Shown: positions 2,809 through 55,300 of the stretch, one piece after another
How positions within the stretch are numbered: position 1 is the first letter of the stretch
How the letters are laid out: each line of letters opens with the position of its first letter
From: Saccostrea cucullata
Taxonomy: Eukaryota
Direction of reading: 5' to 3'
Length of the DNA: 64,000 nucleotides
NCBI RefSeq assembly: GCF_032062105.1
Contig: NW_026929454.1
Span: 62,001 to 126,000 of the forward strand
The notes under the pieces: generated by a model
The model's input: only the letters and a program-made list of their open reading frames with translations
Database searches by the model: none
Told to the model about the DNA's origin: nothing
Made by a program: the position numbers and the translations under genes

Positions 2809-2858
<50 letters not shown>
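2809..2858. repeat. (TA)n microsatellite, left flank of the tRNA-unit insertion
   Basis: Pure TA run. Confidence 0.95.
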
Positions 2859-2862
<4 letters not shown>

Positions 2863-2963
2863 CACAATTTACAACAACTCTTAAACTAATATAACTGCCC
2901 TAAGTGAAGAAATATTAATATAGAAAGCACAAAGAAATTCACTTTTACATGGATACCCACTTC

Positions 2964-3052
2964 CGCCCCAGCCCGGGGTTGAACTCTCGACCTACGGAAT
3001 CTGTCTCCTAGCAGTGCAGGAACAGCGCGTTAGACCGCTCGGCTATCTAGGC
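2964..3052 (-). ncRNA. tRNA-Leu-derived Pol III head (inverted copy), not a functional tRNA
   Basis: Reverse complement of the head at 3393. Confidence 0.7.
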
Positions 3053-3392
3053 AAGCTAAAAAACTTGCTTTCGATGCCGATGGAATTCTCACAACGCTGC
3101 CCTACACTACACGGTCATTGAGAATAGAAGTGAGATACAGTTATTTGGACATTAGTTCTTAGAGGATTGTTACCAATACATGTTGTGATGAAATTAATTT
3201 ATTTATATTAGTTTAAGAGTTGTTGTAAATTGTGCTTTATAAATAAATTAATTTCATCACAACATGTATTGGTAACAATCCTCTAAGAACTAATGTCCAA
3301 ATAACTGTATCTCACTTCTATTCTCAATGACCGTGTAGTGTAGGGCAGCGTTGTGAGAATTCCATCGGCATCGAAAGCAAGTTTTTTAGCTT

Positions 3393-3481
3393 GCCTAGAT
3401 AGCCGAGCGGTCTAACGCGCTGTTCCTGCACTGCTAGGAGACAGATTCCGTAGGTCGAGAGTTCAACCCCGGGCTGGGGCG
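3393..3481 (+). ncRNA. tRNA-Leu-derived Pol III head (A and B boxes), not a functional tRNA
   Basis: GCCTAGATAGCCGAGCGGTCTAACGCGCTG matches the Leu-type D-arm/A-box. B-box is GAGTTCAACCC. The anticodon arm is expanded and the T-stem imperfect. Confidence 0.7.
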
Positions 3482-3740
3482 GAAGTGGGTATCCATGTAA
3501 AAGTGAATTTCTTTGTGCTTTCTATATTAATATTTCTTCACTTAGGGCAGTTATATTAGTTTAAGAGTTGTTGTAAATTGTGCTTTATAAATAAATTAAT
3601 TTCATCACAACATGTATTGGTAACAATCCTCTAAGAACTAATGTCCAAATAACTGTATCTCACTTCTATTCTCAATGACCGTGTAGTGTAGGGCAGCGTT
3701 GTGAGAATTCCATCGGCATCGAAAGCAAGTTTTTTAGCTT

Positions 3741-3829
3741 GCCTAGATAGCCGAGCGGTCTAACGCGCTGTTCCTGCACTGCTAGGAGACAGATTCCGTA
3801 GGTCGAGAGTTCAACCCCGGGCTGGGGCG
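3741..3829 (+). ncRNA. tRNA-Leu-derived Pol III head (second direct copy)
   Basis: Identical to 3393-3481, offset by 348 bp. Confidence 0.7.
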
Positions 3830-3867
3830 GAAGTGGGTATCCATGTAAAAGTGAATTTCTTTGTGCT

Positions 3868-3870
<3 letters not shown>

Positions 3871-3933
<63 letters not shown>
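3871..3933. repeat. (TA)n microsatellite, right flank of the tRNA-unit insertion
   Basis: Pure TA run. Confidence 0.95.
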
Positions 3934-7576: not shown

Positions 7577-10551
7577 TTAAGGGGGATGTACAAGCCATAT
7601 TGGATCTATTCTGGTCTAAAATAAGAATGCCAAGAATGCGCTTAATACTCTACCAAACTAGCAAAAAGGTTACTCAATGGGCTAATGCACTTATTACCTA
7701 CTGTTAGACACCAAAATTAATTAAAAAAATGATATTTTATGCATTAGAACTGCGCAGCTACAGGATTCAGGAGATGAAAAATGCAGTGAAAATGATGTCA
7801 GTTCGGTTCATTAATAATATGGCTACAATAATTTGTTTTGCTTTTTTCTTGTCATTATCCATAATTCTTGAAAATTTGATTTTTCTTATGGTGGTCTTCC
7901 TGAAGCCATGTGTTCATGATGTCATCCATTCCTCTGTCACACAGAGTGAAAATTATATTGATTTTAGAATAAATGCGACAGTAACAACATCAAGACAAGA
8001 CAATTCTCATAATTATTAGGTTATACAACTTACTACATTTATTTGTTGCATTGCATCGTCTGATTGATGATAAAACGCGATTTTTAACCCCACTCTGGCA
8101 AATCGGGAAGAAAAGTTCTGTCTATCGCTTGAGTTTCCTCGGTCATATCATTCCACAGAGCATGTTGATGGCATATGCACATGTCTTCTGTGAATAGATG
8201 CATTTGTAACCTTTGAATTTTCCATTTGAGAAGTCTTATGTCCATTATTTACAGTGAAAACAGCTGACAGAAGGTTAGACATATTTCTGGTATGTAGAAA
8301 CGTGAATCTTTGTGTGAATCCTTGTAATGAACATGTAATTATTTTCTGCAACTTAGCAGAGTTTCTAAAAACGCTATATATCTATGTGATTTCAGTTCAG
8401 TTATAAGATATCCGTCAATTAAAACTTCAGGTTCCGAATTGCATCTCCTTTAAGTTGTGTTTGTAGAGAGACTATTTGGGGCTCTGCAAGGATGATGATT
8501 TTCTTTGTTTGATTTGAAAATGTTAAGCAAGATGCGGTGCATTCGATATCAAATTGTAATTACATGTATTACATTTGCAAAGTTGGTACACGACATGTCA
8601 ATATTGTCAGCAGTTAGATAGAAAAAGTAGTCAGTTTGGGGATTTCCTTCAGGCGCCTCAGAAAAAATAGACATTCTTTGCTGTACTGTTGGGTATTAGG
8701 TCCACACATTGTATGGAGTACTGTTTTGGACATAAAACACATCAACTTGATCATGAAAAAGTAATATATATATTAATGTCCCAAACTGACATACTTCTTC
8801 ATGTAATGTTTTTTAAAGTCTAATTAAAAAAGTTAATTGGACATGTTGAATATTCAATCTGTAGTCAGATATACTTTTCACCTGACTGTGTGAAATTGAT
8901 TTTAAATATGTTTTGCATCAATTTTGACATTATATTATATAGACACATGCAATTAATTTCTGTAATGAAAAATTACCTCATAGTATGATAAAAGTTTACA
9001 CAAGGTTTCTAACTACTTGGAGTAACCCCTTCCGCAATTGCTTTTATATATTTTAATGGCTGTGTTTTGTATCATGTATATTCTAGCTAATTTATTTAAA
9101 TGAGGATAGGGAAGCGTTTTGTTCCTCATGTTCCTGGTGAAAACAATTCATAAGTCCATAGGATATGAATGTTCCACCCAAGCTTCAACAGTAAAGCAAT
9201 GGAAATTTGTATCATGGTATGGAGTTTCATGAAAATATATTGAATATTAGAATTTTTTTTTTATTCGATACACAAAAAATATTAAAGTCAAAGGTCATTG
9301 GGAATTTAAGATCAAGGTTTAAGAGATTTGGACAAATTTGAGAAATTCTCACCAAATAATGTATCAATGCATGAGCTTTCCTAAAATATATAGAATACAC
9401 CAGTAGTTTCTTTGAAACTGGGCTAAACTCACTTTTTTCAAATATATACAAACGAAAGACCAAGTTAAAAAATGATGGCAAATTAAGAAGCTCTCCCCAA
9501 CATCAGAAGTTTGATAAAATATCTTGAGTTGTTTCTTTGATATTTGCAAGAGAGAACAATGTTTGCAGAGAGGTTAAGGCTTATCATCTTTGGCAACAGG
9601 GAAAAGATTTATAGATATTGTTTTTTTAAATTTGTGTCTGTTATAATGATTCTCTTAAAATTGTGGAATGTTCTGAGTTTATCTTCTAAAACTGTATTTC
9701 ATTTTTGTAGATCTACGAGGAAAATCCTATGAAATTTGCATTGAATTTCTATCCTAAAAAAAATCCATGGTAAAACCAGACTCTTGCCAGTATGGATAAA
9801 TCAGAGCCAACTTTTCAATGCCTATACTATGTCCATCTTTGCAAATAAATGTTGGAGGATACCCCCCCCCCCGAAAACCCAGGGTTTTTCAAGATATGAC
9901 CATCTTGCATTACAAAGTATATGATGGAACATATACTGTCCTTATATTGTTCAAATATAATTATTGATTTTTTTCTATTCTGTGAAATTCTAGTTTTGAA
10001 AATGGGCAAAAAAAAGAAAGTAAAAGAAATTGTTTATATGATAAAATGTATATATATGTACTAAAACAAGGGCATTCACATGGATTTTAAGTGTCTACTT
10101 TTCTTTGTGATTCATTGCTGTCAATTACAATTCTGGTAGTTAAAATAATCATCCATGTCCCACTTAAAAATTCGTAAAATACCACATTTGTTTCATTGCA
10201 AGTTGAGAAATTTCATTCATTAATTTTGATTTTGATGTTGTACATTTTTCGTTGCCTGGAATCAAAGCATTGAAGATTTTTGTTTTATAACAACATGTTC
10301 ACTATAAAACAATTGTTCAATGATAATTATGAATTACTTTAAATCACTATGTTACAAAACTCCCCTTATCAATATGTTTATCAACTTTATGTATTTCTTT
10401 AAATATCATTCTTAATTCTCTTCTATTTGTAAAAATAAAATTAATGTAGAGGTTGCATAATTTTTACTTTTCTTCATTTCAGACCATTCTGTGCCTCGAT
10501 AATAAGAAGTTGTCTGGAAAAAATTCTGGGCTAACAATAGATCACATGCTG
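7577..10551. mobile_element. Copy 2 of the TTAA-flanked DNA transposon, truncated by the Gypsy insertion
   Basis: Starts TTAA|GGGGGATGT. 8090-10551 is homologous to 1-~4430 without the HINE and the tRNA array. Homology stops at CACATGCTG, where the LTR starts. Confidence 0.6.
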
Positions 10552-11517: not shown

Positions 11518-14500
11518 ATGGATGAATTAGACAAAGAAATCACATTTATTGATAATAAGTTGAATGAGCTACGTAATCGTAGTCTCGAAGTGAATAGTGG
11601 GTTTGACCATTCGACCCCTAAGGAAGTACTGAACCCCCAGTCGAGTTCATTTGACTCGGGAATGGAGACGGCGCGACCGTCAATGTTTTCAAGGAAAACT
11701 TCATCCTTTTTGCATGAAACTCCTCAAGTAGAGAGGCATTACCCTGCCTCAGACATTTTTTTTTGGTGCAAGGCCTAAAGAAAGTATCGGTATTCCCAGT
11801 TATAGACAAAGCTTTGGCTTACCAGACGATGATGACTATTTGTCGTCTGGTATTACTATGAGAAAACCTTCAAGAGTAAGGTTTTCATCACCGACACGTT
11901 TAAGCGCCAGAGAAAAACCTTCTCCTAAGGCAGCCACTGTAGTCATGAAGCCTGCTACATATGATGGAACGATAGCATGGCAAGACTACCGCAGTCACTT
12001 TGAAGCGTGTGCCCAAATAAACGGCTGGAACGAGGAAAATAAAGGTACCTACCTTGCTGTTTCCTTGCGTGGTAATGCCCTGGGGGTCTTGGGGAATCTT
12101 CCCAGAGGAAGAACTCCAGAATATGAAGAGTTGGTGCGTGTTTTGGAAGAGAGGTTTGCTCCACCAAGTCAGACAGAGTTATACAGAGTACAGATGAGAG
12201 AGCGTCGGCAGAAGCCTGGGGAAACATTGCCAGAACTCGGTCAGGCAATTCGGAGACTTGCCAACCTCGCTTACCCAACACCAGACGCCGAAATAAGGGA
12301 GACTCTTTCTAAAGATCAATTTATTGACGGGCTTGTTGATTCCGAGATGAGGATACGAAGAAAGCAAGCTAGGCCAGCAAATTTAAATGAGGCGATAAGG
12401 TTAGCTGTAGAGTTAGAGGCATATAACAGGGCCGAGCGTAAAAGCCATCTCAGGAGTGCGACCCCTAAAGTTTGCAATAAAATGTATGAACATAAAGAGG
12501 GTGACCTTATATCCCTGATTACGAAGCTCTCTGACAAATTCGAGAAGTTTTCTAAAGATGTAGAAGAAATGAAACAAAGGAGATCTCCATCTTTCCCTGT
12601 TTGAGTAAGGGTGGTTACAAGGAAGGGGGCAAGGACAGGGTTAAATGCTTCTATTGTCATGAACAGGGTCACATGCGTAAAGATTGCCCAAGTCTTAGAG
12701 CCAAGGGCAAGGAAGCTGCAAAAGGCAGCAGTAGCGATTTTAAAAGCCATGGGGAGACATTCTCCCATGCTTCTGTGGGGTCTAATACTATTGGTCTGGA
12801 ATCAGGGTTGTTTGTTAATGCTAAAGTCAATGGGTTGGATTCAAAACTTCTCGTTGACACAGGAGCAACTTTGGCCCTTGTCTCTGCTAAATTGATTGAA
12901 CATATCGTAAGCCAGGACACCCCAAAATTATTTCCAATGGAACGAGATGTTTTAGACGCAGGTGGAAATAATTTAAATGTGATGGGGAAGGGTATGTTCC
13001 CTTTTCAAATAAGCAATTTTCAATGTTCTGTGAAAGCTGTTGTTGCCGAACTGAATGTTGATGGCATTATAGGCCTTGATTTCTAACTAGAACATGACTG
13101 TAGTGTAGACTTGAGAAGCCAAGAGTTAGTCGTGGGACAACATAACAGGTTTATCATGGTAAAGAAAGGTCACTTTGGGTGTTTTAGGGTGGTAACGTTG
13201 AACACAGTGACCATTCCTGCAAACAAAGAGGTTTTAATACCTGGAAAGGTTTGTCTACCAGAGGGTGGTCAGCTGCCTTCTCGTGAAAGTTTGGTTGAAC
13301 CGTTAGAAGAAAATACTATAGAGTCGTCTACTGTAGTTGGGAGATCTTTGGTTCTAGGTGCGGAAGTATGGCCAGTTCGTGTTTTCAGCTACACTGTTGA
13401 ACCTTGTCTTATTCACAAGGGCACAAGCTTGGGCCAGATAAGCCCGGTATTTTCAGTGAGTAACAATTGTCAAGAGGTAGTTGCTCTGGAAGTCAATGAG
13501 CAACTGGAGGATCTTCTCGAACGATGCAGTGAGGACCTAACAAAGGATCAAGTCAAGACTGTTCGTGATATGCTGAAAAGTTATGGCCATCTTTTTGCAA
13601 AAGATAATTCGGACTTTGGCTCAACCAGTGTTATCGAGCATGAAATTAATGTGGGGAACGCTTAACCTGTAAAAGAACCCCCTCGCCGTCTCCCATATCA
13701 TGCCACTGAAACAGTTGACAAGCAATTGCAGGAAATGATGAGAGATGGAATAATTGAGCCATCATCCAGTCCTTGGGCTGCAGGCGTTGTACTTGTGAAG
13801 AAGAAGGATGGTTCGACACGTTTTTGTGTTGATTATCGGAAGCTGAACAAGTTGACGATTCAGGATGCGTATCCTCTTCCTCGCAGAGACGAGTCCCTCG
13901 ACAGTCTGAAAGGTAACAAATGGTTTTCGATCCTTGATTTGTTTTCCGGTTATTGGCAAGTATCTGTCAATCCAGAGGACCGTCTAAAACAGCCTTTGTT
14001 ACTCGTAAAGGTCTATACCAATTTAAGAAAATGCCTTTTGGATTGAGTGGCGCTCCCGTGATATTTCAGAGGCTCATGGAGAAGATTGACTGGGCTTCAA
14101 TGGGAGATCTGTTTGATTTATTTGGTTGATGTAATATTTGTCGGTAAAACATTCGAGCAAATGATTCAGAATTTGAAGACCGTTTTGATCGCCTCATTGC
14201 AGCAGGTCTCAAGCTTAAGGCGAAGAAATGTACTCTCTTTGCTAAGGAAGTTTTATATTTGGGCCATGTTATATCTGAGGAGGGGGTTGCTACAGACCCG
14301 GAGAAAGTGAAAGTGATAAAGGATTGGCCAGAACCTTGCAACGTCAGTGAGGTCCAATCGTTTCTTGGCCTTTGTGGATATTATCAACGTTTTGTCGAGA
14401 AATATTCGGAAAGGGCCAAACCTTTATCCAAGCTGACGGAAAAAGGGGCTACGATGAATTGACACAGGATTGTCAGGATGCCTTTAGGGATCTAAAGCAG

Positions 14501-15612
14501 CAATTGTGCCAGGCTCCGATACTGGCAATGCCAGATTTTCATCATGAGTTCATTCTGGATACAGACGCAAGCAACCAAACCATTGGAGCCGTCTTATCGC
14601 AGAATATAGATGGTATTGAAAGACTGATTGCGTATGCAAGTCGCACCCTGTCAAAAGCTGAGCGCCAGTATTGCGTCACCAGAAAAGAACTGCTAGCGGT
14701 GGTAAACTTCACGAAATATTTCAAACATTATCTGTACGGCAAGCAATTCACCGTGAGAACAGACCACAGTTCCTTGCGCTGGTTGCTCAATTTTAAGAAT
14801 CCTGAGGGTCAGTTGCGCGATGGCTCGAGGCGCTAGGGAATTTTAAAATGAAAATAGAACACCGTCCTGGAAAACAACATAGCAATGCTGATGCGCTAAG
14901 TCGACTGTCTTGCAAGAAGTGCTGCATGCCTGATGATCCGATTGAATTGCAAGTACGCAACTTAGCTCCGGACACAAATATGAAGTCTCTACAAAAGAAA
15001 GATGCTGCTTTAGAACTGGTCAAAAATTGGGTTTTAGAGGGCAAGAAGCATGAGTATTCTACTATAAGTAGTGAGGGACGCGTGGTCAAATCGCTGTGGT
15101 TACAGTTTGAAGCTTTGATTGTTGAAGATGATATATTGTAAAGGAGATGGACTGATGGTAAAGGCACGAAGTTGCAAGCTGTTGTGCCGTTTGGTGAAAG
15201 GCGAACAGTCCTTAGTCAACATCATGACAACAGAGTGTCGGGTCATTTAGTAATGACAAAGACAGTTGCAAAGATCCGTCAACGGTACTACTGGCCAGGC
15301 CTACAGTCAGATGTTCGTGCGTACATTGCAGGCTGTGAAAAATGTAGTAAACGGAAAGGTTTTCAAAAGACAAAGCGATCGCCCATGCAGACTGTTCAGG
15401 TTGGGGCACCAATGGAACGTATAGCAACGGATATACTTGGGGAATTACCAGTAACAAATAAGGGGAATAGGTATATTCTTGTAGTATCGGACTACTATTC
15501 AAAATGGACGGAGAGCTTTCCGATGAGAAATATGGAAGCCGAGACTGTGGCAAAAGTCATCGTTGAACAAGTTATCACTCGGTTCGATGTGCCTTACGTC
15601 ATCCATTCTGAT
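11518..15612 (+). pseudogene. Gypsy gag-pol, broken into more than 9 ORF pieces
   Basis: ORFs 11518-11778, 11840-12604 (gag), 12601-13086 (CCHC and protease), 13111-13665, 13726-14462 (RT), 14372-14836 (RNase H), 14848-15612 (integrase). Confidence 0.9.
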
Positions 15613-17530
15613 CTGATGGAAAACACTGATGATTTGTTTTGTCATAAGATTTACTCTCGATGTATTTTCCCTTTTGAGAAAGAATTGTAAGTTTTGCTTT
15701 TTCATACTAACATTTTAATTTACATGATCATTCTATTTTGTCAATGAAAGTTAGAATTCTCGAAAAAAATTATTACCACACAAACAATCCATCACTGAGT
15801 ATACCTTTCCGAAGAGAACGAGAAGAATTTTGAATCATGAAACTAGGGAAAGCCTTCCCTATGGATGTAATGACAATGTCGACAGTGTTGGAAATCTTTC
15901 CTTTTTACAGTATAACAATATAAATGTGATCGGACATTTTAATCATACACAGAGACGTATGCGTAGTCATGGACATCGATCTTACAATTAATCTTTAAAT
16001 ACGATGTATCTTTGATTCAATTCTACCTTATGTAAATCGTCAGTTAGGTGTACATTATATGTGCATGTATCAAATTTTACTCTGTCCCTTTTAAACTTTT
16101 AAATATTCTTCATGAAAAAGTCAAGGAAAGATTATTGTCTGATTCCTCGACACCAGATAATAGGATCGTACATGTATCTGTGATTATGGATATAGCAAAC
16201 CATAGGCCTTTTATACCCCCACGTTTTACTGAAGAAAATGAAGCTAAAACAATCCTTTTTTTTCCTGAGACAGTCAAAATACATAATATTCTTAATCACA
16301 AAAGGGTCCAGTATTGTTTTCCAACATACCGTATAGGTAGAATTTTTAGAGAGTATCTCAGAATTTTAAGCAAAGTGTCAAGGACATGATGATCCCTCAA
16401 AATGAGACTACCACTCGCTCTAATTAATGCAAGATATCCTTTTCTCATACAATTTTCATAAGAATCCTTACAAACAATTGCAGGCCCCAGCAAATGTTCA
16501 GTCAAGCCTCTGTCTCCACGATAAATTTAAGTCCAGGCTTTTTGATATCATTGACAGCTGCTTTTTCAATAATAATGGAACTCGTAAAATCATTCTGATA
16601 ATACACACAAGTACTCTGAAGTTGACATCAAAAAGATGGTTGGGTTTCTGATTGACAATATTTTGCGGTTGGAGACCAGGTCTTCCAACAATCTATTGGA
16701 ATTCCCATGGGTACCAATAGCGCCCCTTTATTAGCAGACCTATTTTCATATTCATATGAAACAGAATTTATGCAAAATCTTATGTGTAAAAAATAGAAAA
16801 CACTTGCTGTGGCCTTCAACGCGACATGTAGATATATCGACGACGTATTGTCCATTAAAAAATGGTAATTTACATTCCAATACGATATATCCTGGTGAGC
16901 TTGGGATAAAAAATACCACAGAGTCTGATTTATTTGTTTCATACTTGGATATTTTACTTGAAAACGACGTTACAACCAAGCTCTATGATAAACGAGATAA
17001 TTTTAATTTTTCTATCGCCCCCTTCCTTTATTTATGCAGCGATATATCTTCACCACCTTTATACGGAGTATATATATCTCGGTTGATTCGGTACGGTACG
17101 CAAGAGCATGCTTTACATGTGAACAATTTCAAAAACAAGGTAACATATTGACAAACAAGTTGACGAAACATGAATATCAGCAGTCTTGTTTAAAGTCATC
17201 ATTTCGTAAGTTCTATGATCGATACAATGACCTTGTCAGAAAATGCAATTTATAATTGAGTCAAATGCTGACTGACGTTTTCCGAACTAATTGTTAGTCA
17301 ATTATTTTTACACTGAATCGGCGACGGATTTTTCCGTTATTTCCTGATCTTGAGATGGAGCACAAGGCGGGTGTGACTGGTCGGCAGGGGATGCTCACTT
17401 CTCCATGGCACCTGTTCCCACCTCTGATTTTTTGGTGGTCCGCGTTTGTTCTGCTCCTATTTTGTATTGGACTGGACTTCACAGTTCTGATATTGAATAC
17501 TGTTCTTGATCTCCAAATGTTTTATTTAAA
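15613..17530 (+). mobile_element. Penelope-like retroelement, Naiad/Chlamys type (GIY-YIG upstream of RT); degenerate, longest copy in the window
   Basis: ~15700-15900 decodes to HFNLHDHSILSMKVRILEK...RREREEF*IMKLGKAFP/YGCND, the C-terminal half of GIY-YIG. ~16600-17296 decodes to PLE RT (QQSIGIPMGTNSAPLLADL, RYIDD, KLYDKRD). Followed by the conserved 3' motif at ~17355-17455. Confidence 0.85.
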
Positions 17531-22632: not shown

Positions 22633-23003
22633 CATGATACAACAAAATTTGAAATCTGTGGCCTGAATATACATATATTAAAATGAAAATAAAAGATGTA
22701 ATACTAAACCAACGTAATTTTTAACGTATGATCTATATTTGTAAAGATATTGAAGTTTTCAATACTCCAATCATTATTTTCTTTAATAAATCTCAACGCG
22801 GAAAGTGTTCATAAGAAAACATGACAAATATAAAATCTTAAGAATTTAATTAAAATGGTTTATTTTACCTGTACAAAAAAAAATCTTGTAAAGTTTTAAT
22901 TGAGAAGAGGTTTAAAAGTATACATGCGTATTTCAGTTACAGTGTAATATTCATCAAGCTCCAATGAGTTGTAATATTTTGGTCACGGTCTTGAAGTAAT
23001 TGT

Positions 23004-23848
23004 TCATTGCAATTTATATCCAGTAAAAGAAGACCAGTTTGCATAAGCATATTTTCCATATGCACCATGTGTTCTTATCCAGACTTTGTCTTTTTTCTTC
23101 ATTTTTATTAAAGCTGTTGATGATGCACTTTCATAGTTAGAACTTCCTGATTTGCCATCCGCGTGATTGTAACCAATTAAATTTCCATTCAGAACGATCT
23201 CTGTATAAAATTGTGATGTTAAGTTTGTCAGAATTGTCCATTGAAGGAGTAAATACCATCCTCAGGCGCTGTAAATTTACCTGTGGAAGGGTCATAGGCG
23301 TTTCCAGAATTTAAGGTTACTTTTCCGAAGACCACCGCAGCATAGTTTTTAAGGTTCTGCTCGGGTGTCGATATTCGAGCGTGAAAAGCAATTATCCCTG
23401 TTTCGAACCAAGAAGAAATCAAAATTATACTCTTATACATGTATTAAGAAAAAAATTTTTTTTCACAACAATATATCGGGTTAGATTGATAAATAAACTA
23501 AAAAGGTAGATATTGTAAAATATATTACTCTGAATATATAATATGATTTTGGCTACCTTTTTCTTCTCTATTGCAATCTTTGTTTTTATACCCCATTCCT
23601 TTGCATACTGCATTGTACTTGGTGTATTTACTAATGAAATCTTGTGTGTTTTCTTTTGCAAATCCTTTGCTTAGTATAATTGCAATCACAAGAACTGCCT
23701 CCTTCTGTGCGAAAATCCTGTTTAAAATACAAAATAGAAAGAAAACGCATCTATATGAAGGATATAATTTTACTAAGTGATTTCTGAATTGATTTATTAT
23801 ACACATGCAATATCTGTAATGATCATATTATTTATAAAATACTTACAT
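23004..23848 (-). pseudogene. C1qDC paralog A, secreted globular C1q; exons ..23847, 23717-23557, 23397-23004; 1-nt frameshift at ~23241
   Basis: IAFHAR...FGKVTLNSGNAYDPSTGKFTAPEDGIYSF, frameshift, then WTILTN...DKVWIRTH...WSSFTGYKLQ*. GT-AG introns and a signal-peptide exon. Confidence 0.85.
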
Positions 23849-30545: not shown

Positions 30546-33500
30546 TTATTTTGAAACATAGTAGATATTTTTCGGATAGTTAAACATATGACTTTTTCTG
30601 TATGGGCATTCCCTGATGAAGAAACCACGAATACCTCCCATTCTGAAAACGAAAAAAATGTACTTCAGGTATTCAAACTTTAAAATTCTTAATAATCTTT
30701 ATATCAATAATCAAAACGTTTATCACTTGGGTTATAATTAACCAGAATAGATACTATACCAACCCGTTTGAAATTGGCTTTCTTCCTGTAACTAAATATC
30801 CTGGACCAAATGGTGATACAAAATTTTCTGTCGTTCGGAACCATATTTTACATTCATTGTCATTGTAGGAAGCTCCAAACACTATATAAATAGAGGAGAC
30901 GCATTTGGAATTGTGTTCAATTAATAGAAATACTTTCAAAAAATGATAAGTCAATAAAAATACAACCAGAATTTCTGAAATAGGATTCACTGAACGTGGT
31001 GTTCCATGCTAATATCATAACAAAAAGTGTAGTAAATTTAAAAATCAAACAGATATAATCCTGATCTTTATATTAAAAACTTAGGCTGAGAATGAAACTA
31101 ATCATTTTTAGCTTTGATACATATTTAGGATATTTTTCAAAACAAATGTAGTACGACATAGTAGTTTTTATGTCATTTTTTCAAGTACAGAATGACTAAA
31201 GTCGATGACAATTTTTGCGCAAACAACAGCATTGGAAGGATTTTTCACACACTGTTAATCTTACTTTTCGAATGGCTACATGTGTCAACAAGATATCTAA
31301 AAAAAATCTTTAACATATTCTAATAACATTTTTAAAAAAAAAAGAGTATTCGCAATGCAGTTTAGTTGATCGAGATGTATTAACGCAGGAAACAAAGTTT
31401 AAAAAGTAAGAATAGAAAGGGAATGAAATAATGCAGATCCAAGCTTGTTTAATTTGTAATTGACAGGGACATTTGCAAATACAATTAAAAGCTGCATAAA
31501 AAAACATTACTAAAAAAGAAAACAAGATACGCTGTAGACAAAACGGGAATGCTTTGATATTAAACCTCTTCGTAACAGATGCAATTTTCTACACCAATTA
31601 AAGGGAGCTTCTAGCAGCTACATGTACGAACCAGAACAGCAAATAACCCTTCTCTGTCCCGCGTCAGAGTTGATCCCATTGAAATAGTTTTTCTGTGGGC
31701 AAACAAACGCTTCAAATGCACCAGCGTCTTGAAGAAGAATAAAATAATATTGAAAATGAGAAATAAGTCGTATTATAAGTTTTAAACTGAGTACTGGGAA
31801 ATATGCATATTTCTATTTTCAGTATATGAAAAGTTGTGTCTAAGATGGAATCAGATTTATGTTTGTCTCTTCTATCTATTCGATTTTTTTTCTTCGTTTG
31901 AGATTTTATTTGGACTTACTGAAAATGGCACATTGTTTTACTTTTCCTGGTGGAGGGAGACATAATGAACCGAAAAAAGACGTTGGATCGCCGCCTCGAA
32001 ACACAAGTGGTCCTTTGTCCGTACAGTTTATATTTGAACGTTGAACAGAAATAGGTTCAGTATTTTCTACAATGAATTATGTCTCTGTAGAAAGAGTCAA
32101 CAGTCAAACAAAGCTGGAATAGCTAATTCAAGTTTAGCTTAGATCGGCGAGCTAGCACCGAAGCAATTTTTAAACAGAAAGGAAGGTTTGTGAAAGACTG
32201 GTTTATTTTGCAGTTTTCTTTAATGTTTAACGAGGCTGGAGTCTGAAAAATAGAGTTATTATGTAAATTATGTAAACCAAATAGCTTTGAATCCACACCA
32301 ATGGCCGATAAAGAATCAAGTAATATTTCACGTGCCCTGGTGTAAGAAATAGGCTTGTTGATATTACAAAGCCTGTGACAATTAGCTGATTTGAAATAAC
32401 GTACAGATCTAAAAATGAAATCGTCTGGTTTTCCTGATATTCCAGCTAACTGTAAATAATGTTTTGCCCAAAACACAGGACATGTAGCATTACCTGTACT
32501 TGCAATGAGAACATCATTACCTCGTCTATAAACGTCAGTTTTGCTGCTTTCAATATGTAAACACATGTAAAAATCATGAAAAGAAATATTTCTAACTCTT
32601 AAATTCGCAAGTTCATTAAATCTTAAAAACCCCGCAAATCCCATCAGAAACATAGCACACACTCTTACACTTAATAAGTCATTTTTTTGACTGACATCAT
32701 CGTATTTGTTTATGATCTGCTCCAAAATTTCGGGCGTAATAGGTTCCTTCTTCTGAATCGGCTTACTAAGGATTCTTTTTCCTCCTTCCATAACCATATG
32801 CAGAATTTTTGTATCACACGGATTAATGCACACATTGAAATCATGGAACCACTTAATACTGTAAAAATAAGCTGATAACACTGATTCTGATACCGACTGT
32901 TGCACGAGACTGCTAAGAAATACGGCTACCGTACTCACTGCCGCGGGTAAATGAGAAAGACCATGATCTGAACACCAGGTCCTGAACTTTTTAAAATATA
33001 TGTCGAACATTTTATTTAAACTATCACTCTGCCCTTTCCTGATTATGTGCTGAATATTTGATGCTGCTGAATAAAATCTGCTGTCCATTTGCATTTCCTG
33101 AATGTTTGTCAAAACACTGCGTACCTAGGGAAAAAAAAATGAAACCACCGTCATATCCAAATACATGCATATCAAAATAATAATTTCATCACCCAAAAAC
33201 TGTCGTGTTTTTTAAACAATTAGTCAAATCTTTTGCACATGATGCTTAATTTTTTGCACATGGTGCCTTACTAATAAATTAGTTCATACAAACTTTGCAC
33301 ATGGTGCATGAATTTTTATTGTACATTGAACTGCACATGGTGCTCAAATTTTATACTTTTCAGGATGTTCCAAAATTTACTTTCAAAACCAGTACATTAC
33401 TCTGAAATTTTTCTGATGCAAAAATACCGTTTTTATCTGAACCAGCTGTGAGAAAATTTGTAGGATTTTTATATTCAAAATACTTCAGCACAAAATCGTG

Positions 33501-36500
33501 AAATTTATTTTTCCTTTCATTCCCATCGGCCAATACAAAGCGGATTTCCATTTTGGAATGATTAACGTACCAAATGCTTTACATATTTGCATATGAGTAA
33601 TAACTTTGCATATCAAAACAGGTGGGGGCACAATCCAACAATTATCGTCAGCCCAATTTTGTGCAAATGCATCAACCCCTGAAGATCCGGGGAGTCCAAA
33701 ATCTAGAATAAAATTTTTTAACTTTTCTATTCTTACTATCTGCAAATAAATCACAGGTATACTCTCGCCATACTTCATTAAAAAATTTAAAAATTCTGTT
33801 TGAAACTCCCCAATCATCATAATCATAAATCTTGCTTAAGTCATCTGCATCTGTATTCATAGTTCTAGGAATCCATTCTAACTCTAATTTTATCGAATAC
33901 GCAACACACAAACCAAACATTTCCAAAGCAAGCTGATGCAGCTCGTAGTTCATACTACCCTTAGATGCAATAAGTACTGCATTTTTATTATCTGTATACA
34001 CTTTGACAAGTCTACCCGACAGATAATTTTGCAAACTCTCAATAATCACACAAATAGCTTTTATTTCTCGCCACGTAGAACTTTTTATTTTTTCTGAATC
34101 ACTCCACATGTAATGCACTACCTTTTCATTTTGTTCTAAAGAAAAACCTGCTCCTGCAAAAGAGCTCGCATCCGAAAACAAAACTTTTGCAGGTATTTTT
34201 CTGAACCGTGTAATTTTTTATCTCGGTAAAGTGGCCATATTCTTGTACCAGAAAAGCAATTCAATAATACAGTCACGTGACATATTCAATACACAATCCC
34301 AACCAGTTCTCTTACACAATGCCATGCTCAAGTGTCGTGTCATCAGCTGACAAATACTACCTAAAGTAGGTTTCAATGAAATGACCTTTCCCACAATAGA
34401 ACCGACATTTCGCGCAGTTACTCTACTTACATTATTCACTATCGAAGCAACAACAGAACGAATACTGTCAATTTTTTCATTCGGAACTTCTAAAATGCCA
34501 TCTTTCAGATTCCATACAAATCCTAACCAAATCATTTTGTCTACTGGAACAAACTGCGATTTTTCTATATTAACCTGAAACCCTGAGTGATCTAACGTTT
34601 TCTGTAGAAACGCGGCTATTTCTATACAAGAATTGTAATCAGAGCAAACCCAACCATCATCGAGATAAACTACGATAGGAATGCTATGAGATCTCCAACA
34701 TTTTACCAATACCCTCACAACTTTTGTGAAAATATGCCCTGCAGAAGAAAGCCCAAATGGCAAAACAGTGAATTCAAAATATTTCCTTTTTCCCTGAAAT
34801 TCCCAACTAAACCCTAAATACTTTTGAAATTCGGGATGTACATCTATATGGTGGTAACCCGATTTAAAATCAAATTTTATCATGAATTTTTCTTCTCTAG
34901 CATATAACATAGCTTCCTTAATTCCCTCGAATTTAATTTTTTGCTTCTCAATAAACTGATTAACATGTCTGAGATCTAAAACAAGACGTTTTTTACCAGA
35001 CGCGTTAACAGACACAGTCAAAGGATTAACTACAAAAGATGGTTTTTGAATCTCTCTAACACACCTAGTCTTAATTAGGTCAGAAATAGCTGAGCAAACA
35101 AATTCTGCATGATTTAATGAAGACCTGTTATTTTTTAAAATAATACTATATAGAAGTTCTTTGAAAGGTATAGCATACCCACATCTTATAATATTCAAAA
35201 TAAAACTATTAGCATTAAGCTCGTCATTCCACAAATTTATGCTTTTCTTGAGCTTGGATTTAACACTAACCATCTCAACATTTTTCTCATATTCATATTG
35301 CTCATTTAAATCAAACATATACTCAACTTCACTATTTTCACTGCTTAGAGGTTCCACTTGTGCTTGTAGTTGAGGTTGACAAGGTGGGGATGGGCTGGCC
35401 TTTGAGGTATGGGAAGTCTCTGACCATGTGTCCGACTTGCCGACAGTAGAAACATCCGCCACGATCTCTTTGGAACTGGAATACTGTATTTCCGACCCTT
35501 GAAGCCCCTGTGTTGAATTTTTCGGAGGAATTATACGACTGGCTAAAGCCACAAAAAAAGTCACTGGGCGCAAAACTTCCTCTGCGTCTTTCATACGGTT
35601 TTGCTCTGAAGGATCGTTTTCTTGCAGCACGCCCCACAGCGTAATGAAGCTTAGTGGCATCTTCGGTATTATCTGCCAAAGGGTCATCGAGATACTCGTG
35701 CACGGTATCCCATCCGTGACGGTCAGCGATTTTCAGAATTTTGTTTCTCTGTTGTAGGGCTGTCTTTTCTTCCTTAATAACTGCTGCAGCCTTTGTTAAA
35801 TCAACTTCCTGAATGAGACCTTCAATTTCAGACAACTTAGAAAGTCTATCTTGATTAAACGCGAATTGAATGTTATGCCCCTCATGCTTAAATTCAAATG
35901 CTTGTCCGGACTCAGGCACGTGTGCTGCACTTTTCAAGGCATTACTTTTTCCTAGTTGTTCTGTAAGTCCTGCAATTGTACTCACAATCACATTACTTTG
36001 TTTTTCTAAGGCTTTGTTGAGTGAAGTACTAAACAGCGAAACGGCGTCCTCGTTTGAGAGCCCAACTTCATTACACTCCATTGTATTACTATCCTCCATA
36101 TTTCTTACAATCTTTAAATCCTAGCGAGCAAGCTTAGAGTGCCGTGCTACCGCATGGCCTTACTATTTATACCCTAAATAACCACGTGACTTCAGAAGAA
36201 AACTTTTCGAACACATACCACACATAATTTTAATTGATATGTGGGAATTTGATGGTGGTGTTGAGTAATACTGCATATAAAATTTTACAGTTCGTGGCGG
36301 TATTGAATTCATGGGTCTCCCCATACCTCGAAATCAACGCAAATTCAACTTCCACGAAAATTAGTGATTTCAAGGTACACATTAAATAAACAGACTTCAG
36401 AATCAAACAACGAAGGCCAGTTTTATTCAATTACACAACGAAATCGTTATCGTACAGTCTGTCTACAGTATTTTTTACATAGACCGTGAAATTTGTTTTT

Positions 36501-38625: not shown

Positions 38626-39112
38626 TGCAACAATGAGCACAATTTGTAAAAAAAAAAATAATAATAATAAAAATAAAATGTTTCTCGCTTATAAATACTG
38701 GAGTACGAAATAACTCTTCCTTCGAAAGGTGTAGTCTAAACCTTATGACCAGTAATTGAGTTTTTAACATAATTGTGCATTTTTCTTTCATCTACCGACC
38801 ATATTTTTTGTCAAAATTTACAATTGCATTCATACAAGTAGTTTCCATATATATGTGTGTATCTAAAATTTTAAAAATTAAAATCTTTGTTTTGTACAAA
38901 AAGATGATAATGTTAATCTAAGACTATGTTTCATGGCCCTTAAAAGTATATACATTTAATTTAAAATATTCATTTCTTTCCAAAGGCGATAACGTCGTGA
39001 AGGAAGTATTAGACTTGATAACTTTTCTCTTTAACAAGCTTCCTCACAGGAAATTGATGTACCTTATAAGGCTTTGCAAGTTGCTAGAGGATGGTATTTC
39101 CTAAAATATCAT

Positions 39113-40390
39113 ATACGTCGATACGATATATCCTGGTGAGCTTGAGATAAAGGATACCATAGATTCTGACACATCTATTTCATATTTGGATGTTTTACTT
39201 GAAAAAGACGTTAATGGTAATCTAACAACCAAGCTATATGATAAATGTGATGACTTTTACTTTTCTATCGTCAACTTCCCTTACTTATGCAGCAATATAC
39301 CTTCATTACCTGCATACGGTGTATTTATATCTCAGTTGATTCGATACGCAAGCGTATGCTCTACGTGCGAACAATTTCTAAAACGGGGTAAATTATTGAC
39401 AAGCAAGTTGATGAAACAAGAATATCAACAATTTCGTTTAAAGTCATCATTTTGTAAGTTCTATGGTCGATACAATGACCTTGTCAGCAAATACAATTCT
39501 TCATTGAGTCTATTTTTAACTCTGTGAACAGGTGTCCGTAAGCACTGGTCATTTTAAGAAACCTGTTTATACTACAAGCTAATTACCCCCTCATTATAGG
39601 CAATATCCTCCGATGGTTTGACAGGCACTGAGACAGTGCGTCCATATTTAAGTATTTTGCCAAGAAAGAGAGACCAGGTATTTTATTTAACTGTCTTCAA
39701 TAAACACGGGCGATAACTCGTACTCATTGCATTTACTAGAGAACATGGCGTGTAAATTTTAGGTGAGAGAAAACGTTGAGAAAATTAGTTGAATTCCTGT
39801 CTTTATTTTGGATTATATTTTAGGTTAAAAGGCATACACAACCTGAAAAAGGTTTGATAAATTAATTTAGAAGTATTTTCAGTGCATATCCTTTTGTAAT
39901 CTTCGAAATTGTTTGGGAGCGGTTCAGCAATTTTTTTGCAACGTTGCAAGTATATTGGTGGAATTCCAATTGTACTAACTAATGTAAATTAAACATAAAC
40001 TGATATGAAACTCTTAAGTGCTTTTTATTTGTAGCGCCAATGGCAATTCGCAAAATTTTGAAACGTAAAAATTAATCAACAGCTTTTTGACCTAAATTTG
40101 CAAAACTAAAGCGACGTAAAAATTGCCAGATTTACGGTATGCTGACTGACGTTTTTCATACTAATTATTAATCCATTATTTGTGCACTGAATTGGCAACG
40201 GATTTTCCCGTTATTTCCCGATCATGACAAGGAGCACACGGGTGTGACCGGTCGGCAGGGGAAGCTCATTCCTCCATGGCATCTGATCCCACCTCTGATG
40301 TTTCGGAGGTCCGTGTTTGCTCCGCTCCTATTTTGTATTGTTTTATGGACTTTTGATTTGGATACTATTCGTTATCTCCATACCTTTCAT
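39113..40390 (+). mobile_element. Naiad-type PLE copy, interrupted by a ~630-bp insertion (39511-40138)
   Basis: RT C-terminal ORF 39186-39527. The consensus TCATTGAGTC|AAATGCTGACTGACG is split between 39510 and 40139. 3' motif at 40231-40325. Confidence 0.85.
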
Positions 40391-41045: not shown

Positions 41046-42398
41046 ATTGTTTCAATGAAAAATTATAAACAAATGATGGATTTTAATTCAAGTACATGAA
41101 CGAAAGGGACAGGTTCAGGATGACCAGTGCTTTGATTGTGAGGGACTTTGTGGTGTGTGTTCGGCAGGAGCGGGGAGGGGGTATGAAAAAAAAATTGCAA
41201 TACTTATAGTTAACATGAGATTTGTAGCATACGAGGGTTGACACAAATTTAATATTTCCTAAATTTTACGTGTACTTGTATAGGGTGTGCCTTTCCACCA
41301 CTAACCCCACAACGTCCACATACGCAACTTGATTTGGTTTGGAATAATATTGGATATCATTCCTCGGTTTATCATTGAACCCTTTAACGCTCTTCTTCTG
41401 TATATGGACGGGTTTATTTTCGAAAGAAACAGCGATCATGAGCTGCATATGCTGGAAAGTAAAGACTCTTATCGATTAGATATTTGATAAATTTTAGTCC
41501 GAAAAAGTCGGTCGCTTTGGTGTTACTGAATTTTGAGATTTTGAGAATTCACATCTGATTTACACAGGCTCCAGAATATTCTGCAGCATAGTGCCTCTGA
41601 ACTCTCTTTTTACCAACAGCTAATATTTTTGTAAGGTGTAAGGATAGATTAAAATGAGCATTTGCTCGACTATGTAATGTATCTCTGTTTGTAAGGATTT
41701 TTACAAAAACTAGATATCCAATACAGGATGATGGATCGAATGCACCTTTGTTGACTGGGATTTAAAATGTTAAAAAAATAATTTTGAAGAATTCATAATT
41801 AGATTGAAAATTTATTGTAAAATATAGATTTGGAGCTTTTATCTATTTTTAGAACTTTTTTTAAGATGGTCGTTTTAAGGTCTTAATTTTTCATTTAATG
41901 GAAATAACAAGTCAGGGAGAGTCCAGCGAGGCATTGTTTGTTTTTTATGTAAATAATCTTTGGCCACTTTTGAAAGGCTAAAAATTGTCTCACTTTAAAC
42001 GATTTTATTCATCATGTAAGGATGATTTTATTTTTATTTTTATTCCTGGATTTTCTTAAACTGATTATATTTAGGACAAAAATTTTCCCACCTACCTACC
42101 GATTTTTTTTACCCTGAATCAGGAGAGTCAAACAAACACTATTAAAAATTTTTGTTGATGGTTTCCAAAGAAAATTGCTTGCATTCTTTTTTGAAATTTG
42201 AAGAGTTCTAAACATGTTTAAGAATTTTTAGAGATATAATCAATTGTATTTTGCTACAAAGATATTAAGATGATCAATTTACATATTATCAAATATTATC
42301 TATATCTCTTTTTTCTTTTCATTCATGTCTTTTGAAAGTATTGAAATCATAAGATATTTTAAAATTTAAGATAATTTTATTTTTCCTCAATGTTTCCG

Positions 42399-43310
42399 TT
42401 ACAATCTAAATCCGGAAAACGATGACCAGCTTACGACAGCGTATTGCCCATCTCCACCATGTGTTCTAATCCAGACTTTATCATTTTTCTTCATTTTTAT
42501 TATAGCTGTCGAAGATCCGGAAGAGTAACTCGAACTGCCTGAGACGCCATCCGCATGATTGTAGCCAATTATATTACTGTTAAGAACAATATCTGTGTTA
42601 AACATCTTCCCAGCTAGTGTGTTAGAATGGTCCACGTGAATGAGTAGGCACCATCTTCAGGTGCTGTGAATTTACCTGTTATAGCATCACAGGCATTTCC
42701 ATGGTTTAGAGTTGCCTTTCCAAATACAACAACAGCATAGTTGGTAAGGTTAACCTTAAGTTTCGATAATTGTGACTGAAAAGCTATGATTCCTGTTTAA
42801 AATAAACGACAAATGCTTAACTGTAGATTCAACAGAAACAATGAAAAGTAGTATGTAAAAGATATTCCCTGAAAGGTTTTGACTTTGATAATGTAAAAAT
42901 TTTTTATACGAGTATTTCACATTTTGAACAGTAATTTAACATGATCAGAGAATCCATGTAACCTAGCTTGAAGGAAATCAAAAATTTTACGTAATTCTAT
43001 ATCTGACATTTCACACAGGAAGACCAACACATCTTTTGATGAAATTATACCTTTTTCTCCTGCTGTGCAATTAGTTGTTCTATAACCCATTCCTTGACAC
43101 ACTGTATTGTACTTTTTGTATTTCTCGAGAAAGTCTTGTGGGCGTTCCTCTGCATACACTACAAAAATTATGCACACAACAAGGAGTGTCGTTTTGAACA
43201 AAGTTGTACAATTCAAAGACATTAAAAGTAAAAATAACATTTTATTCAAAGCAATATGTCAAAAATTAAAATTATAAGATATCATAAATTTGCAGTGAAT
43301 ACTTGCATGT
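42399..43310 (-). pseudogene. C1qDC paralog B; gC1q exon 42792-42399, upstream exon ending 43051; +2 (CA) frameshift at ~42620
   Basis: IIAFQSQ...GKFTAPEDGAYSFTWTILT, frameshift, then LAGKMFNTDIV...DKVWIRTH...WSSFSGFRL*. Upstream exon reads LLVVCIIFVVYAEERPQDFLEKYKKYNTVCQGMGY. The 5' splice sites look non-canonical. Confidence 0.85.
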
Positions 43311-44685: not shown

Positions 44686-45020
44686 TCGTTTAAAGTAATC
44701 ATTTTGCAAGTTCTGTGGTCGATACTATGACCTTGTCAGCAAACACAATTTATCATTGAGTCAAATGCTGACTGACGTTTTTCATACTTGTTGTTAGTCC
44801 ATTATTTATACACTGAATTGACGTCGGATTTTCCCGTTATTTCCCGATCATGACAAGGAGCACACGGCGGGTGTGACCGGTCGTCAGGGGATGCTCACTC
44901 CTCCATGGCACCTGATCTCACCTCTGATGTTTTGAAGGTCCCTGTTTGCTCTGCTCCTGTTTTGTTTTGTTTTATGGACTTTTCATCTTGAATACTGTTC
45001 GTTATCTCCATATGTTTCAT
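44686..45020 (+). mobile_element. Naiad-type PLE 3' end
   Basis: ORF terminus plus well preserved 3' motif at 44857-44951. Confidence 0.85.
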
Positions 45021-45128
45021 TGAAGACAAGAAAAAGGAGGCTACGAACTATATATATACTAATATCTATGAAATTTATATTGGATGTCACAAAACAAAAT
45101 TGAGCTTGAAGAATTGCAAGGTTTTGAG

Positions 45129-45739: not shown

Positions 45740-46044
45740 CGATGATCGATCGTTGATTTACTGATTGTATATTGTTTAACGCTCCTTCTCGAGAATTTTT
45801 CACTCACGACACCACTTGCCGGTAAAGAGCTGCAAATTTTGACCTACACTCGGCACTCAGGGCCATTGAGCAGTGAGGGATCTTTTTGCTGTCAGCACCT
45901 ACTGCGACATGAAAACTCGGTTTATACGGTCTCATCCGAAGGACCGGTCTCCACGTCCCACAGTAGGATTCGAACTGCGACTTACGGATCAATTCCTTAC
46001 CTCGCGACTCCAGAGCAGACGCTCTAACCACTGCGCCACGTGGG
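45740..46044 (-). mobile_element. tRNA-derived SINE with Deu/Nin-like core
   Basis: Minus strand: A-box TGGCGCAGTGG, B-box GTTCGAATCC, core CTTCGGATGAGACCGTATAAACCGAG...AAAGATCCC, tail GTTAAACAATATACAATC. Confidence 0.8.
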
Positions 46045-51944: not shown

Positions 51945-52900
51945 AGGATATGGAGATAACGAACAGTATTCAATCTCAACGTCCATTAAACAATATACAA
52001 AATAAGAGCAGAGCAAACACGGACCTCCGAAACATCAAAGGTGGGATCAGGTGCCAAGGAGGAGTGAGCATCCCCTGCCGACCGGTCACACCCGCCGTGT
52101 GCTCGTTGTCATGATCAGGAAATAACGGAAAAAATCCGTAGTCAATTCAATGTATAAATAATGGACTAACAATTGGTATGAAAAACGTCAGTCAGCATTT
52201 GACTCAATGATAAATTGTATTTGCTGACAAGGTCATTGTATCGACCACTGAATTTACGAAATGATGACTTTAAACGAGACTGTTGATATTCTTGTTTCAT
52301 CAACTTGCTTGTCAATAATTTACCTCGTTTAAGAAATGGTTCATACGTAGAGCATGCTCTTGCGTATCGAATCAACTGATATATATATACTCCGTATGCA
52401 GGTGATGAAGGTATATTGCTGCATAAGTAAGAGAATTTGACGATAGAAAAGTTAAAGTCATCACGTTTATCATATAGCTTGGTTGTTAGATTACCATTAG
52501 TGTCTTTTTCAAGTAAAATATCCAAGTATGAAGCAGAAGTGTCGGACTCTGTGGTATCTTTTATCTCAAGCTCACCAGGATATATCGTATCGACGTAGGA
52601 ATGGAAATTATCATTATTAATTGACAATACGTTGTCGATATATCTAAATGTCGAGTTGAAGGCCACAGCAAGTGTTTTCTTCTTTTCACGCATAAGATTT
52701 TGCATAAATTCTGCTTCATATGAATATGAAAATAAGTCTGCTAATAACGGAGCGCAATTTGTACCCATGGGAATTCCAATAGATTGTTGGAATACCTGGT
52801 CTCCAAAAACCACATAGATATTGGAAATAAGAAACTCAAGCATCTTCTTGATGTCAACTTCAGAGTACTTATGTGTGCAATCAGAATCTGTTTTAGCAAA
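51945..52900 (-). mobile_element. Naiad-type PLE, 5'-truncated, best preserved copy (RT ORF 52166-52843)
   Basis: QQSIGIPMGTNCAPLLADLF, FRYIDN, KLYDKRDDF, QLIRYARAC. The ORF ends without a C-terminal GIY-YIG. 3' motif at 52011-52104. Confidence 0.92.
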
Positions 52901-55048: not shown

Positions 55049-55300
55049 TGGAGCATTCAACTAGCGGTCAACTGCAAAGGAAATAGAGGAGTATTCAACT
55101 AGCGGTCAACTGTAAAGGAAATAGAGGAGTATTCAACTAGCGGTCAACTGCAAAGGAAATAGAGGAGTATTCAACTAGCGTCAACTGCAAAGGAAATAGA
55201 GGAGTATTCAACTAGCGGTCAACTGCAAAGAAAATAGAGAGTATTCAACTAGCGGTCAACTGCAAAGAAAATAGAGGAGTATTCAACTAGCTTCAACAGC
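55049..55300. repeat. 38-bp minisatellite, ~7 copies (GGAGTATTCAACTAGCGGTCAACTGCAAAGGAAATAGA)
   Basis: Direct tandem repeats with period 37-38 bp. Confidence 0.95.

Follow-up and report, generated by a model that had tools for sequence, protein, structure and literature searches.

Organisation of the locus

The window, that is, the whole stretch of 64,000 nucleotides of Saccostrea cucullata DNA that was analysed, holds near its left end an element made of two inverted arms. The left arm (2859..3207, minus strand) is one full turn (349 nt) of a repeat unit and has its 3' end at the putative priming site B, where it is joined to a (TA)n tract, (TA)25, at 2810..2858. The right arm (3203..3875, plus strand) runs for 1.9 turns, from a 5' end at unit position 159 to a 3' end at the putative priming site A, where it is joined to (TA)31 at 3871..3933. 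The two arms meet head to head with a 5-nt overlap, TTATA (3203..3207; gap -5). The left arm, which was found as an inverted repeat, is identical to 3238-3586 of the right arm (0 mismatches), and the direct copies within the right arm likewise show 0 mismatches over 324 nt. No terminal inverted repeats were found at the element besides its two arms. No ORF of at least 120 aa lies over the unit, and so the RT and GIY-YIG reading frame of an autonomous Penelope-like element (PLE) is absent from the unit itself and present in the partner described below.

Read along the plus strand, the unit carries a tRNA-Leu-derived head with a decayed cloverleaf (3393..3479), in which we take TAGCCGAGCGG (3400..3410) and GTTCAACCC (3461..3469) to be the A and B boxes by consensus. 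Two predicted stem-loops follow. Stem-loop A (3501..3543; 7-bp stem, 29-nt loop) displays GTGCTTT (3515-3521) and then a TATA pad, at priming site A, and stem-loop B (3569..3612; 6-bp stem, 32-nt loop) displays GTGCTTT (3580-3586) and then ATAAAT, at priming site B. A 3' segment predicted to close a rod (3680..3731), complementary to the 5' leader and head, ends in GCAAGTT and leads into T6 (3730..3735), the predicted Pol III terminator and unit junction, whose length is reset between arrays. Beyond it lies a second, truncated copy (3736..3870) consisting of leader, head and sequence up to site A (3863-3869), with no terminator. The only complete promoter-to-terminator unit at the locus is 3388..3735 on the plus strand, which would give a Pol III monomer of 348 nt whose ends are predicted to pair into the rod.

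A family of tandem arrays with two fixed 3' ends

A similarity search with the unit gave 214 matches in 40 of the 1,137 candidates scored, and across the genome (1.17 Gb) there are 1,284 exact matches to the junction and 1,659 to the A-box head, against none for the controls. The unit belongs to a young mobile family that exists as short tandem arrays, hundreds of them. An end falls at site A or site B in all 40 of the similarity-picked loci, chosen by similarity alone with no regard to the end pattern. Their arrays comprise 1 to 14 units, ending at unit position ~131 (A) or ~195 (B), with 5' ends that vary. Each of the two sites is GTGCTTT followed by (TA)n, and ends of this kind lying on (TA)10 occur genome-wide 343 times for A and 283 times for B, against 0 and 2 for the controls. 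For end counts we retained 77 loci, excluding overlapping or complex loci and probable allelic duplicates (L047, L056); at these loci, which were partly selected by the pattern itself, 115 closed 3' ends were counted, and 103 of them are joined to TA at one of the two sites. Among 29 two-armed arrays, 21 have one end of each type, one is B+B, none is A+A and seven have one other end, such that one site is used per arm in 21/22 (p = 1e-5).

Partial tandems, an inverted 5'-truncated arm and two 3' ends (the tail) are marks of PLEs, and the element has all of them. The ends characteristic of a SINE, with a start at the head and a LINE-primed RNA 3' tail, are replaced here by two internal 3' ends, uniform 5' ends and a multimeric form. 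L222 and L226 hold a diverged form of the unit, in which the head is followed by a long G-tract.

The T-run as the unit boundary

The preliminary description of this DNA had picked out T6 as the only run of four or more T (T4+) on the sense strand from the head at 3393, lying just ahead of the next head, and both the sequence and a script bear this out; the strand otherwise has seven TTT runs. T6 is followed by AGCTT (3736-3740) and then by the next head from 3741. The same description placed T6 in the loop of a hairpin. The complementary pair around it, GCAAG (3725-29) and CTTGC (3738-42), is real, but no array other than that of the window has AG in this loop (1/72 arrays), and the usual family junction is GCAAGTT-TTTT-(A/G)ACTTGC, with a 7-bp stem. 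Two of the T's are thus paired in this longer stem, and the natural monomer begins 5 nt ahead of the tRNA-like head, at 3388.

For one copy, the chance of finding no T4 in unit positions 1-337 is 0.087 in mononucleotide and 0.096 in dinucleotide shuffles (0.026 and 0.067, respectively, for the AT-rich part), and 14 of the 1,059 T-matched 337-nt windows of the 64-kb window are T4-free. The absence of T4 from a single copy is thus suggestive, and not decisive alone. Across the family, internal T4+ runs occur in 3/108 head-to-head units (2/40 arrays) and in 7/124 family monomers (52 arrays), one array (L031) being clonal for one internal T4. In aligned monomers the sense strand has internal T4+ in 4/49, compared with 49/49 for the antisense strand. 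The predicted avoidance of T4 across family members therefore holds, with the proviso that copies 90-99% alike do not provide independent trials. Since only arrays of more than one turn contain a complete promoter-to-terminator gene, the tandem form would be the transcription unit, and transcription from 3388 to 3735 would yield 348 nt, one exact unit; these two earlier proposals, of a unit-length Pol III RNA and of a functional tandem form, thereby gain indirect support.

The T-run is also variable from array to array. The junction loop differs from T6 followed by AA or GA in 33/72 arrays, and 187/205 junctions match the mode of their own array. Control homopolymers are nearly always unchanged (A4 72/76, C4 71/71, G4 70/71), although this control is imperfect because T6 slips more than A4. 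Length of the T-run shows no tree signal (14 changes against 13.3 when shuffled, for 38 arrays on a weakly resolved tree with 2/34 branches starred). A's are found within the T-run in 8/72 arrays, compared with 9/4,753 T cells in the body, which makes them about ten times commoner than T-to-A changes in the body, and some may be inherited. Termination alone is insufficient to explain the T7-T8 runs of about 14/72 arrays, which need U addition or slippage. The junction pattern as a whole is the trace to be expected if an oligo-U 3' end of variable length had been joined to a 5' end that is a purine.

The predicted fold of 3388-3735 is a rod with its two ends paired and with the tRNA head lying under the 3' segment. 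When 49 arrays are compared, 99.4% of rod cells are paired, in an alifold structure that is biased towards the data from which it was derived, and the common variants retain pairing; one compensatory rod pair, A-U to G-C between subfamilies, represents a single event. Folding energy does not favour the 3388 register over other circular permutations and is therefore no evidence for the start site. We consider it fairly likely that the ends of the unit are set by Pol III start and stop.

The tRNA-like head, ribozyme searches and RNA reads

The A-box region of the head is similar to the genome's tRNA-Leu genes, and a tRNA-Leu call was obtained for 11 of the 17 pattern loci. The head appears to retain intact A and B boxes, and a promoter is predicted. 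ARAGORN reported no tRNA at the unit head at its default setting and a broken fold only at a lowered threshold, and an intact acceptor stem and T arm, when looked for in the head, were not found. It had been suggested earlier that read-through combined with RNase P cleavage at the tRNA 5' end could release monomers. This now seems unlikely, in that the cloverleaf is broken, the head is predicted to be buried in the long-range rod, and the variation between arrays lies in the T-run instead of at the tRNA 5' end.

The hammerhead core CTGANGA..GAAA is found in 0/108 units on either strand, and the window dimer has no CTGA at all; the same scan does detect a core in the partner PLE. Rfam gave only sub-threshold microRNA-hairpin matches at the window locus, due to the inverted arms, and no match on a long array. 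However, Rfam missed the partner's hammerhead core too, and hence its silence on the unit carries little weight against a ribozyme.

The stretch is present in RNA contigs from eleven studies. Four of the 24 listed runs were analysed. The two raw runs made with oligo-dT contained 339 and 187 reads, about equally in both directions, which cross T6 with no pile-up of ends and no dip at T6, in a type of library that is unsuited to a non-polyadenylated Pol III monomer. These reads, 45% of which extend into unlike sequence, look like passenger transcription of arrays. A total-RNA run had word depths of 130-750, and another such run gave a single closed contig of 378 nt that, together with junction-spanning reads, fits a circle or a tandem equally. 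Thus, the RNA data show presence in RNA libraries only. In one RNA run, window positions 3527-3872 have A>G at 25 places and T>C at 10, exceeding other changes, possibly through A-to-I editing of inverted arrays in passenger transcripts or, alternatively, as family variants.

These data are relevant to the idea that a multimeric read-through RNA, from Pol III or Pol II, is cut by RNase P, an unrecognised ribozyme or a nuclease and is then ligated. RNA reads do span the T6 junction, the Rfam result is weak for the reason just given, and precise cleavage and ligation would leave no scar, and the changes in the T-run could be polymerase slippage. However, such processing requires read-through of T6, would have to act on a broken cloverleaf that is predicted to be sequestered or through something other than the hammerhead core missing from the 108 units, and leaves the conserved position of the T-run, the avoidance of T4 and the pairing of the ends unexplained. 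We regard it as unlikely, and return to a monomer whose ends would be those of Pol III transcription.

Each array derives from one monomer

The median number of differences between units is 1 within arms, 1 between the arms of an array and 12 between arrays (108 units). In 12 arrays with at least three units there are 58 fixed, 29 singleton and 4 intermediate variants, and of 32 polymorphisms just one is seen again in a second array. Near-clonal arrays with this pattern of variants indicate that every array went through a single monomer. Among 101 arms, 5' ends are distributed uniformly round the unit (KS p = 0.57), with 6 near the junction where 6.1 are expected; with no excess at the junction, the enzyme evidently does not fall off there. 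Clonality and uniform 5' ends together are best fitted by a covalently closed monomer, and we conclude that a monomer circle was probably the template.

Another way to obtain tandem copies would be for the RT, on reaching the 5' end of a Pol III monomer that is linear, to jump repeatedly to the paired 3' end of the same RNA, with no covalent circle. The terminal 7-bp stem would keep both ends together, no ligase would be required, and non-templated A's at the junction are compatible with jumping. Nevertheless, the RNA 5' end has no excess of arm 5' ends (6 against 6.1, n = 101), and each jump should leave its own scar whereas 187/205 junctions are alike within their array, which makes this route distinctly unlikely. 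The monomer could also be dispensed with altogether, if long array read-through were reverse transcribed directly and homogeneity came from young master arrays or gene conversion. Uniform 5' ends suit any continuous template, and in excerpts of PMC11167929 a PLE used unprocessed RNA in vitro. Yet unit-specific variants are not passed between arrays (1/32 shared), array-private variants, including the AG of the window, are present in all units of both inverted arms, and arrays copied in this way could only shrink. We consider this scheme improbable, and the closed monomer remains the template that we prefer.

A partner Penelope-like element

A search of the genome for GIY-YIG domains revealed divergent pairs of endonuclease domains that belong to a PLE. 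The young family (L142-L155 and L160, e.g. L142:1613-4411, minus strand) is about 3.8 kb long and has eight long ORFs 95.8-97% alike, with an intact 920-aa ORF that contains an RT together with a C-terminal GIY-YIG preceded by a CX4CxxC linker. A CX2-5CxxC linker before GIY-YIG is tied to Neptune and Nematis in the available text of PMC8557442, and by this motif, found also in Nematis, the partner appears to be Neptune-type. Its inverted arms end on (TA)n at two AGTGCTTT sites 83 nt apart, with one site per arm in 7/10 loci, and the hammerhead core that Rfam missed, CTGAGGA..GAAA, lies upstream of its two stem-loop priming sites. All four sites (A and B of the unit and the PLE pair) are predicted to lie in 27-32-nt loops closed by 6-8-bp stems, with pair probabilities of 0.7-0.95 in the PLE and 0.3-0.7 in the unit. 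In vitro, according to excerpts of PMC11167929, a PLE cleaves AT-rich DNA on both strands, and its reverse transcription begins on both DNA strands at two internal RNA sites, which define the tail.

The A-B region of the unit is collinear with the partner family in alignment, with 40/2,000 shuffles scoring as high, and no collinear alignment was obtained with two other TA-linked PLE families or Naiad. This short similarity points to sequence kinship at borderline significance. The partner has a T5-T6 run before each GTGCTTT, and T4+ runs number 17 over 560 nt of its pLTR region; in the unit, those before GTGCTTT are reduced to at most T3, and such breaking of T-runs is what Pol III transcription would require. 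Related to this PLE and co-occurring with it, the unit has in common with it the end motif, the stem-loops and the architecture, and the element is very probably mobilised by a PLE.

As partners, the abundant Naiad family was rejected, since 12/12 of its loci are without TA tracts and the end motif, as were the two other TA-linked GIY-YIG PLE families, which have different ends. We also set aside TGTGCTTT in the Naiad supplement, where both of the places checked, out of four, are within coding-like sequence. The two further TA-linked families (L150, L156, L158, L159 and L157, L161) each have their own 3'-end pair and a core of the form CTGAAGA..GAAA, and one is 32% identical to the partner. 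The element often abuts an end of the partner PLE, with a common TA tract (L040, L045, L051, L060, L065, L067, L108).

The (TA)n tracts and empty sites

At the priming ends the (TA)n tracts have a median length of 46 nt for 28 A ends and 54 nt for 16 B ends. Empty paralogous sites were found two-sided for the window, L050 and L057 and one-sided for L042, L052 and L065, and they contain only 2-10 nt of TA-like sequence. Most matches in one listing from this search were TA self-matches and were disregarded, and L060 was dropped as an empty-site case, its flank being a truncated PLE arm. Paralogues of the host repeat, one of them in the window near 10045-10060, have just three to four TA at this position, and thus the whole block in the window is an insertion. 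The three two-sided sites suggest that (TA)n is made at insertion and not targeted, as far as paralogues rather than orthologues can indicate and allowing for possible later slippage. They may arise in the course of insertion, by synthesis from the UAUA pad of the loop. In the literature, as represented by the available text of PMC8557442, the microsatellite flanks of PLEs are viewed as an insertion bias.

A DNA-level satellite or MITE-like repeat, spread by recombination or rolling-circle DNA replication with the tRNA head and T6 as passengers, would suit the tandem and palindromic form and the indirect nature of the RNA support, but it is very improbable given the polarity of the element (fixed 3' ends, random 5' truncation), an architecture identical to that of an RT-encoding PLE, the empty paralogous sites and the lack of terminal inverted repeats except the arms.

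A proposed replication cycle

On balance, we favour the view that this is a non-coding tandem mobile element whose one-unit Pol III RNA becomes a circle and is copied by the Neptune-type PLE RT of the same genome. Directed by the A and B boxes, Pol III would begin at the purine that immediately follows a T-run (3388) and end at the T-run after that, and the product would be a 348-nt RNA with pairing ends. The RNA ends would then be joined, fixing in that circle a U-tail of variable length. A Pol III RNA with a 5'-triphosphate and a 3'-OH is not a substrate for the RtcB route, and processing is needed before ligation. Next, the PLE protein would cleave a short TATA target, and reverse transcription would be primed from each of the two broken ends at the GUGCUUU sites A and B displayed in the loops; the end positions are observed directly, and priming would be the step that produces them. 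Each enzyme would circle the template for 0.1 to 7 turns, giving the clonal arms, joined head to head, that make up the observed architecture. Arrays of more than one turn would restore a complete Pol III gene. The start and stop of Pol III would, in effect, take over the role that the hammerhead has in retrozymes.

More tentatively, and short of what we would call probable, the element may represent a ribozyme-free class of circular-RNA retroelement in which Pol III signals alone set the monomer and a telomerase-related PLE writes (TA)n from the UAUA pad, telomerase-fashion, before copying the circle from two sites at once. If so, the 'microsatellite targeting' of PLEs would be microsatellite synthesis. 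If the proposed cycle is right, the hammerhead of retrozymes would be replaceable by a tRNA promoter and terminator, giving Penelope-like elements their equivalent of a SINE, and there would be a route from a Pol III transcript to a natural circular RNA. The significance of a minimal 348-nt substrate, together with an intact cognate enzyme with mapped priming loops, is that open questions about PLEs can be put to the test. These include the circularity of the template, the reason for inverted insertions with a tail, and the choice between targeting and synthesis of the flanking microsatellites.

Relation to known elements

tRNA-derived SINEs have a tRNA head with A and B boxes and a borrowed 3' recognition region, are non-autonomous, and are primed by LINEs at the RNA 3' end. 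The unit resembles them in its tRNA-derived head, with apparent internal A and B boxes, in its borrowed 3' recognition region and in its non-autonomous state; unlike them, it forms circularly permuted multimers and has two internal priming sites and a PLE rather than a LINE as partner.

A search of openly accessible papers and preprints turned up no account of a tandem element that is tRNA-headed, free of a ribozyme and mobilised by a PLE; PMC6685494, in the portion available, goes no further than to mention short non-autonomous Penelope elements. A close parallel is with animal non-LTR retrozymes, which in excerpts of PMC7229834 and 10.64898/2026.07.22.740005 are non-coding tandem units of 170-400 nt with a type I hammerhead in each unit. 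The present units are also non-coding, tandem, self-paired and within that length range, and they are like retrozymes in a self-paired monomer, in a proposed circular RNA converted to tandem cDNA by PLE enzymes and in kinship with the pLTR (PMC7229834; 10.64898/2026.07.22.740005, same excerpts). In contrast to retrozymes, the unit is without a hammerhead core; its putative Pol III promoter derives from tRNA-Leu, and one T-run alone is predicted to set the ends of the monomer. The ligation route of retrozymes is RtcB (PMC7229834, in part). A further difference is that the partner has been mapped here, as have both priming sites and the clonality of the arrays.

The SINE-like repeats of schistosomes, Sm-alpha and Sj-alpha, are similar in being tandem and of Pol III type and in needing the tandem context for propagation (excerpts of PMC6765202 and PMC2770079). 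Sm-alpha has both a Pol III promoter and a hammerhead, which cuts its multimers (PMC6765202, likewise), whereas the unit has a terminator at its boundary and no hammerhead. With Neptune-type PLEs the element shares 5' truncation, partial tandems, an inverted truncated arm, two 3' ends with a tail, and (TA)n flanks (PMC8557442 and PMC11167929, as excerpted). It differs from them in that the unit encodes no protein, has a tail of 65 nt and carries what appears to be a Pol III-type promoter.

Other contents of the window

A 38-bp tandem repeat of 7.6 copies lies at 55050-55335, and ARAGORN calls a 91-nt tRNA-Ser(GGA) at 45955-46045 on the minus strand, which is unrelated to the unit head and may be a SINE head or a pseudogene. 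Broken frames for gag, protease, RT and integrase at 11732-15690 (plus strand), and for RT and tyrosine recombinase at 32123-36120 (minus strand), are presumed from their motifs to be LTR-retrotransposon-like and DIRS-like, respectively. Four related exons (repeat families D3-D5), at 22998-23406, 42390-42801, 56701-57120 and 62060-62503, are presumably C1q-domain-like. Naiad-like PLE fragments occur in the window at 16600-17500, 39100-39530, 44690-45030, 51995-52900 and 62900-63740. This PLE, whose Naiad clade label we assume from motifs read alongside excerpts of PMC8557442, is very abundant, with 74,156 candidates in the genome and frames of 1,027 aa elsewhere.
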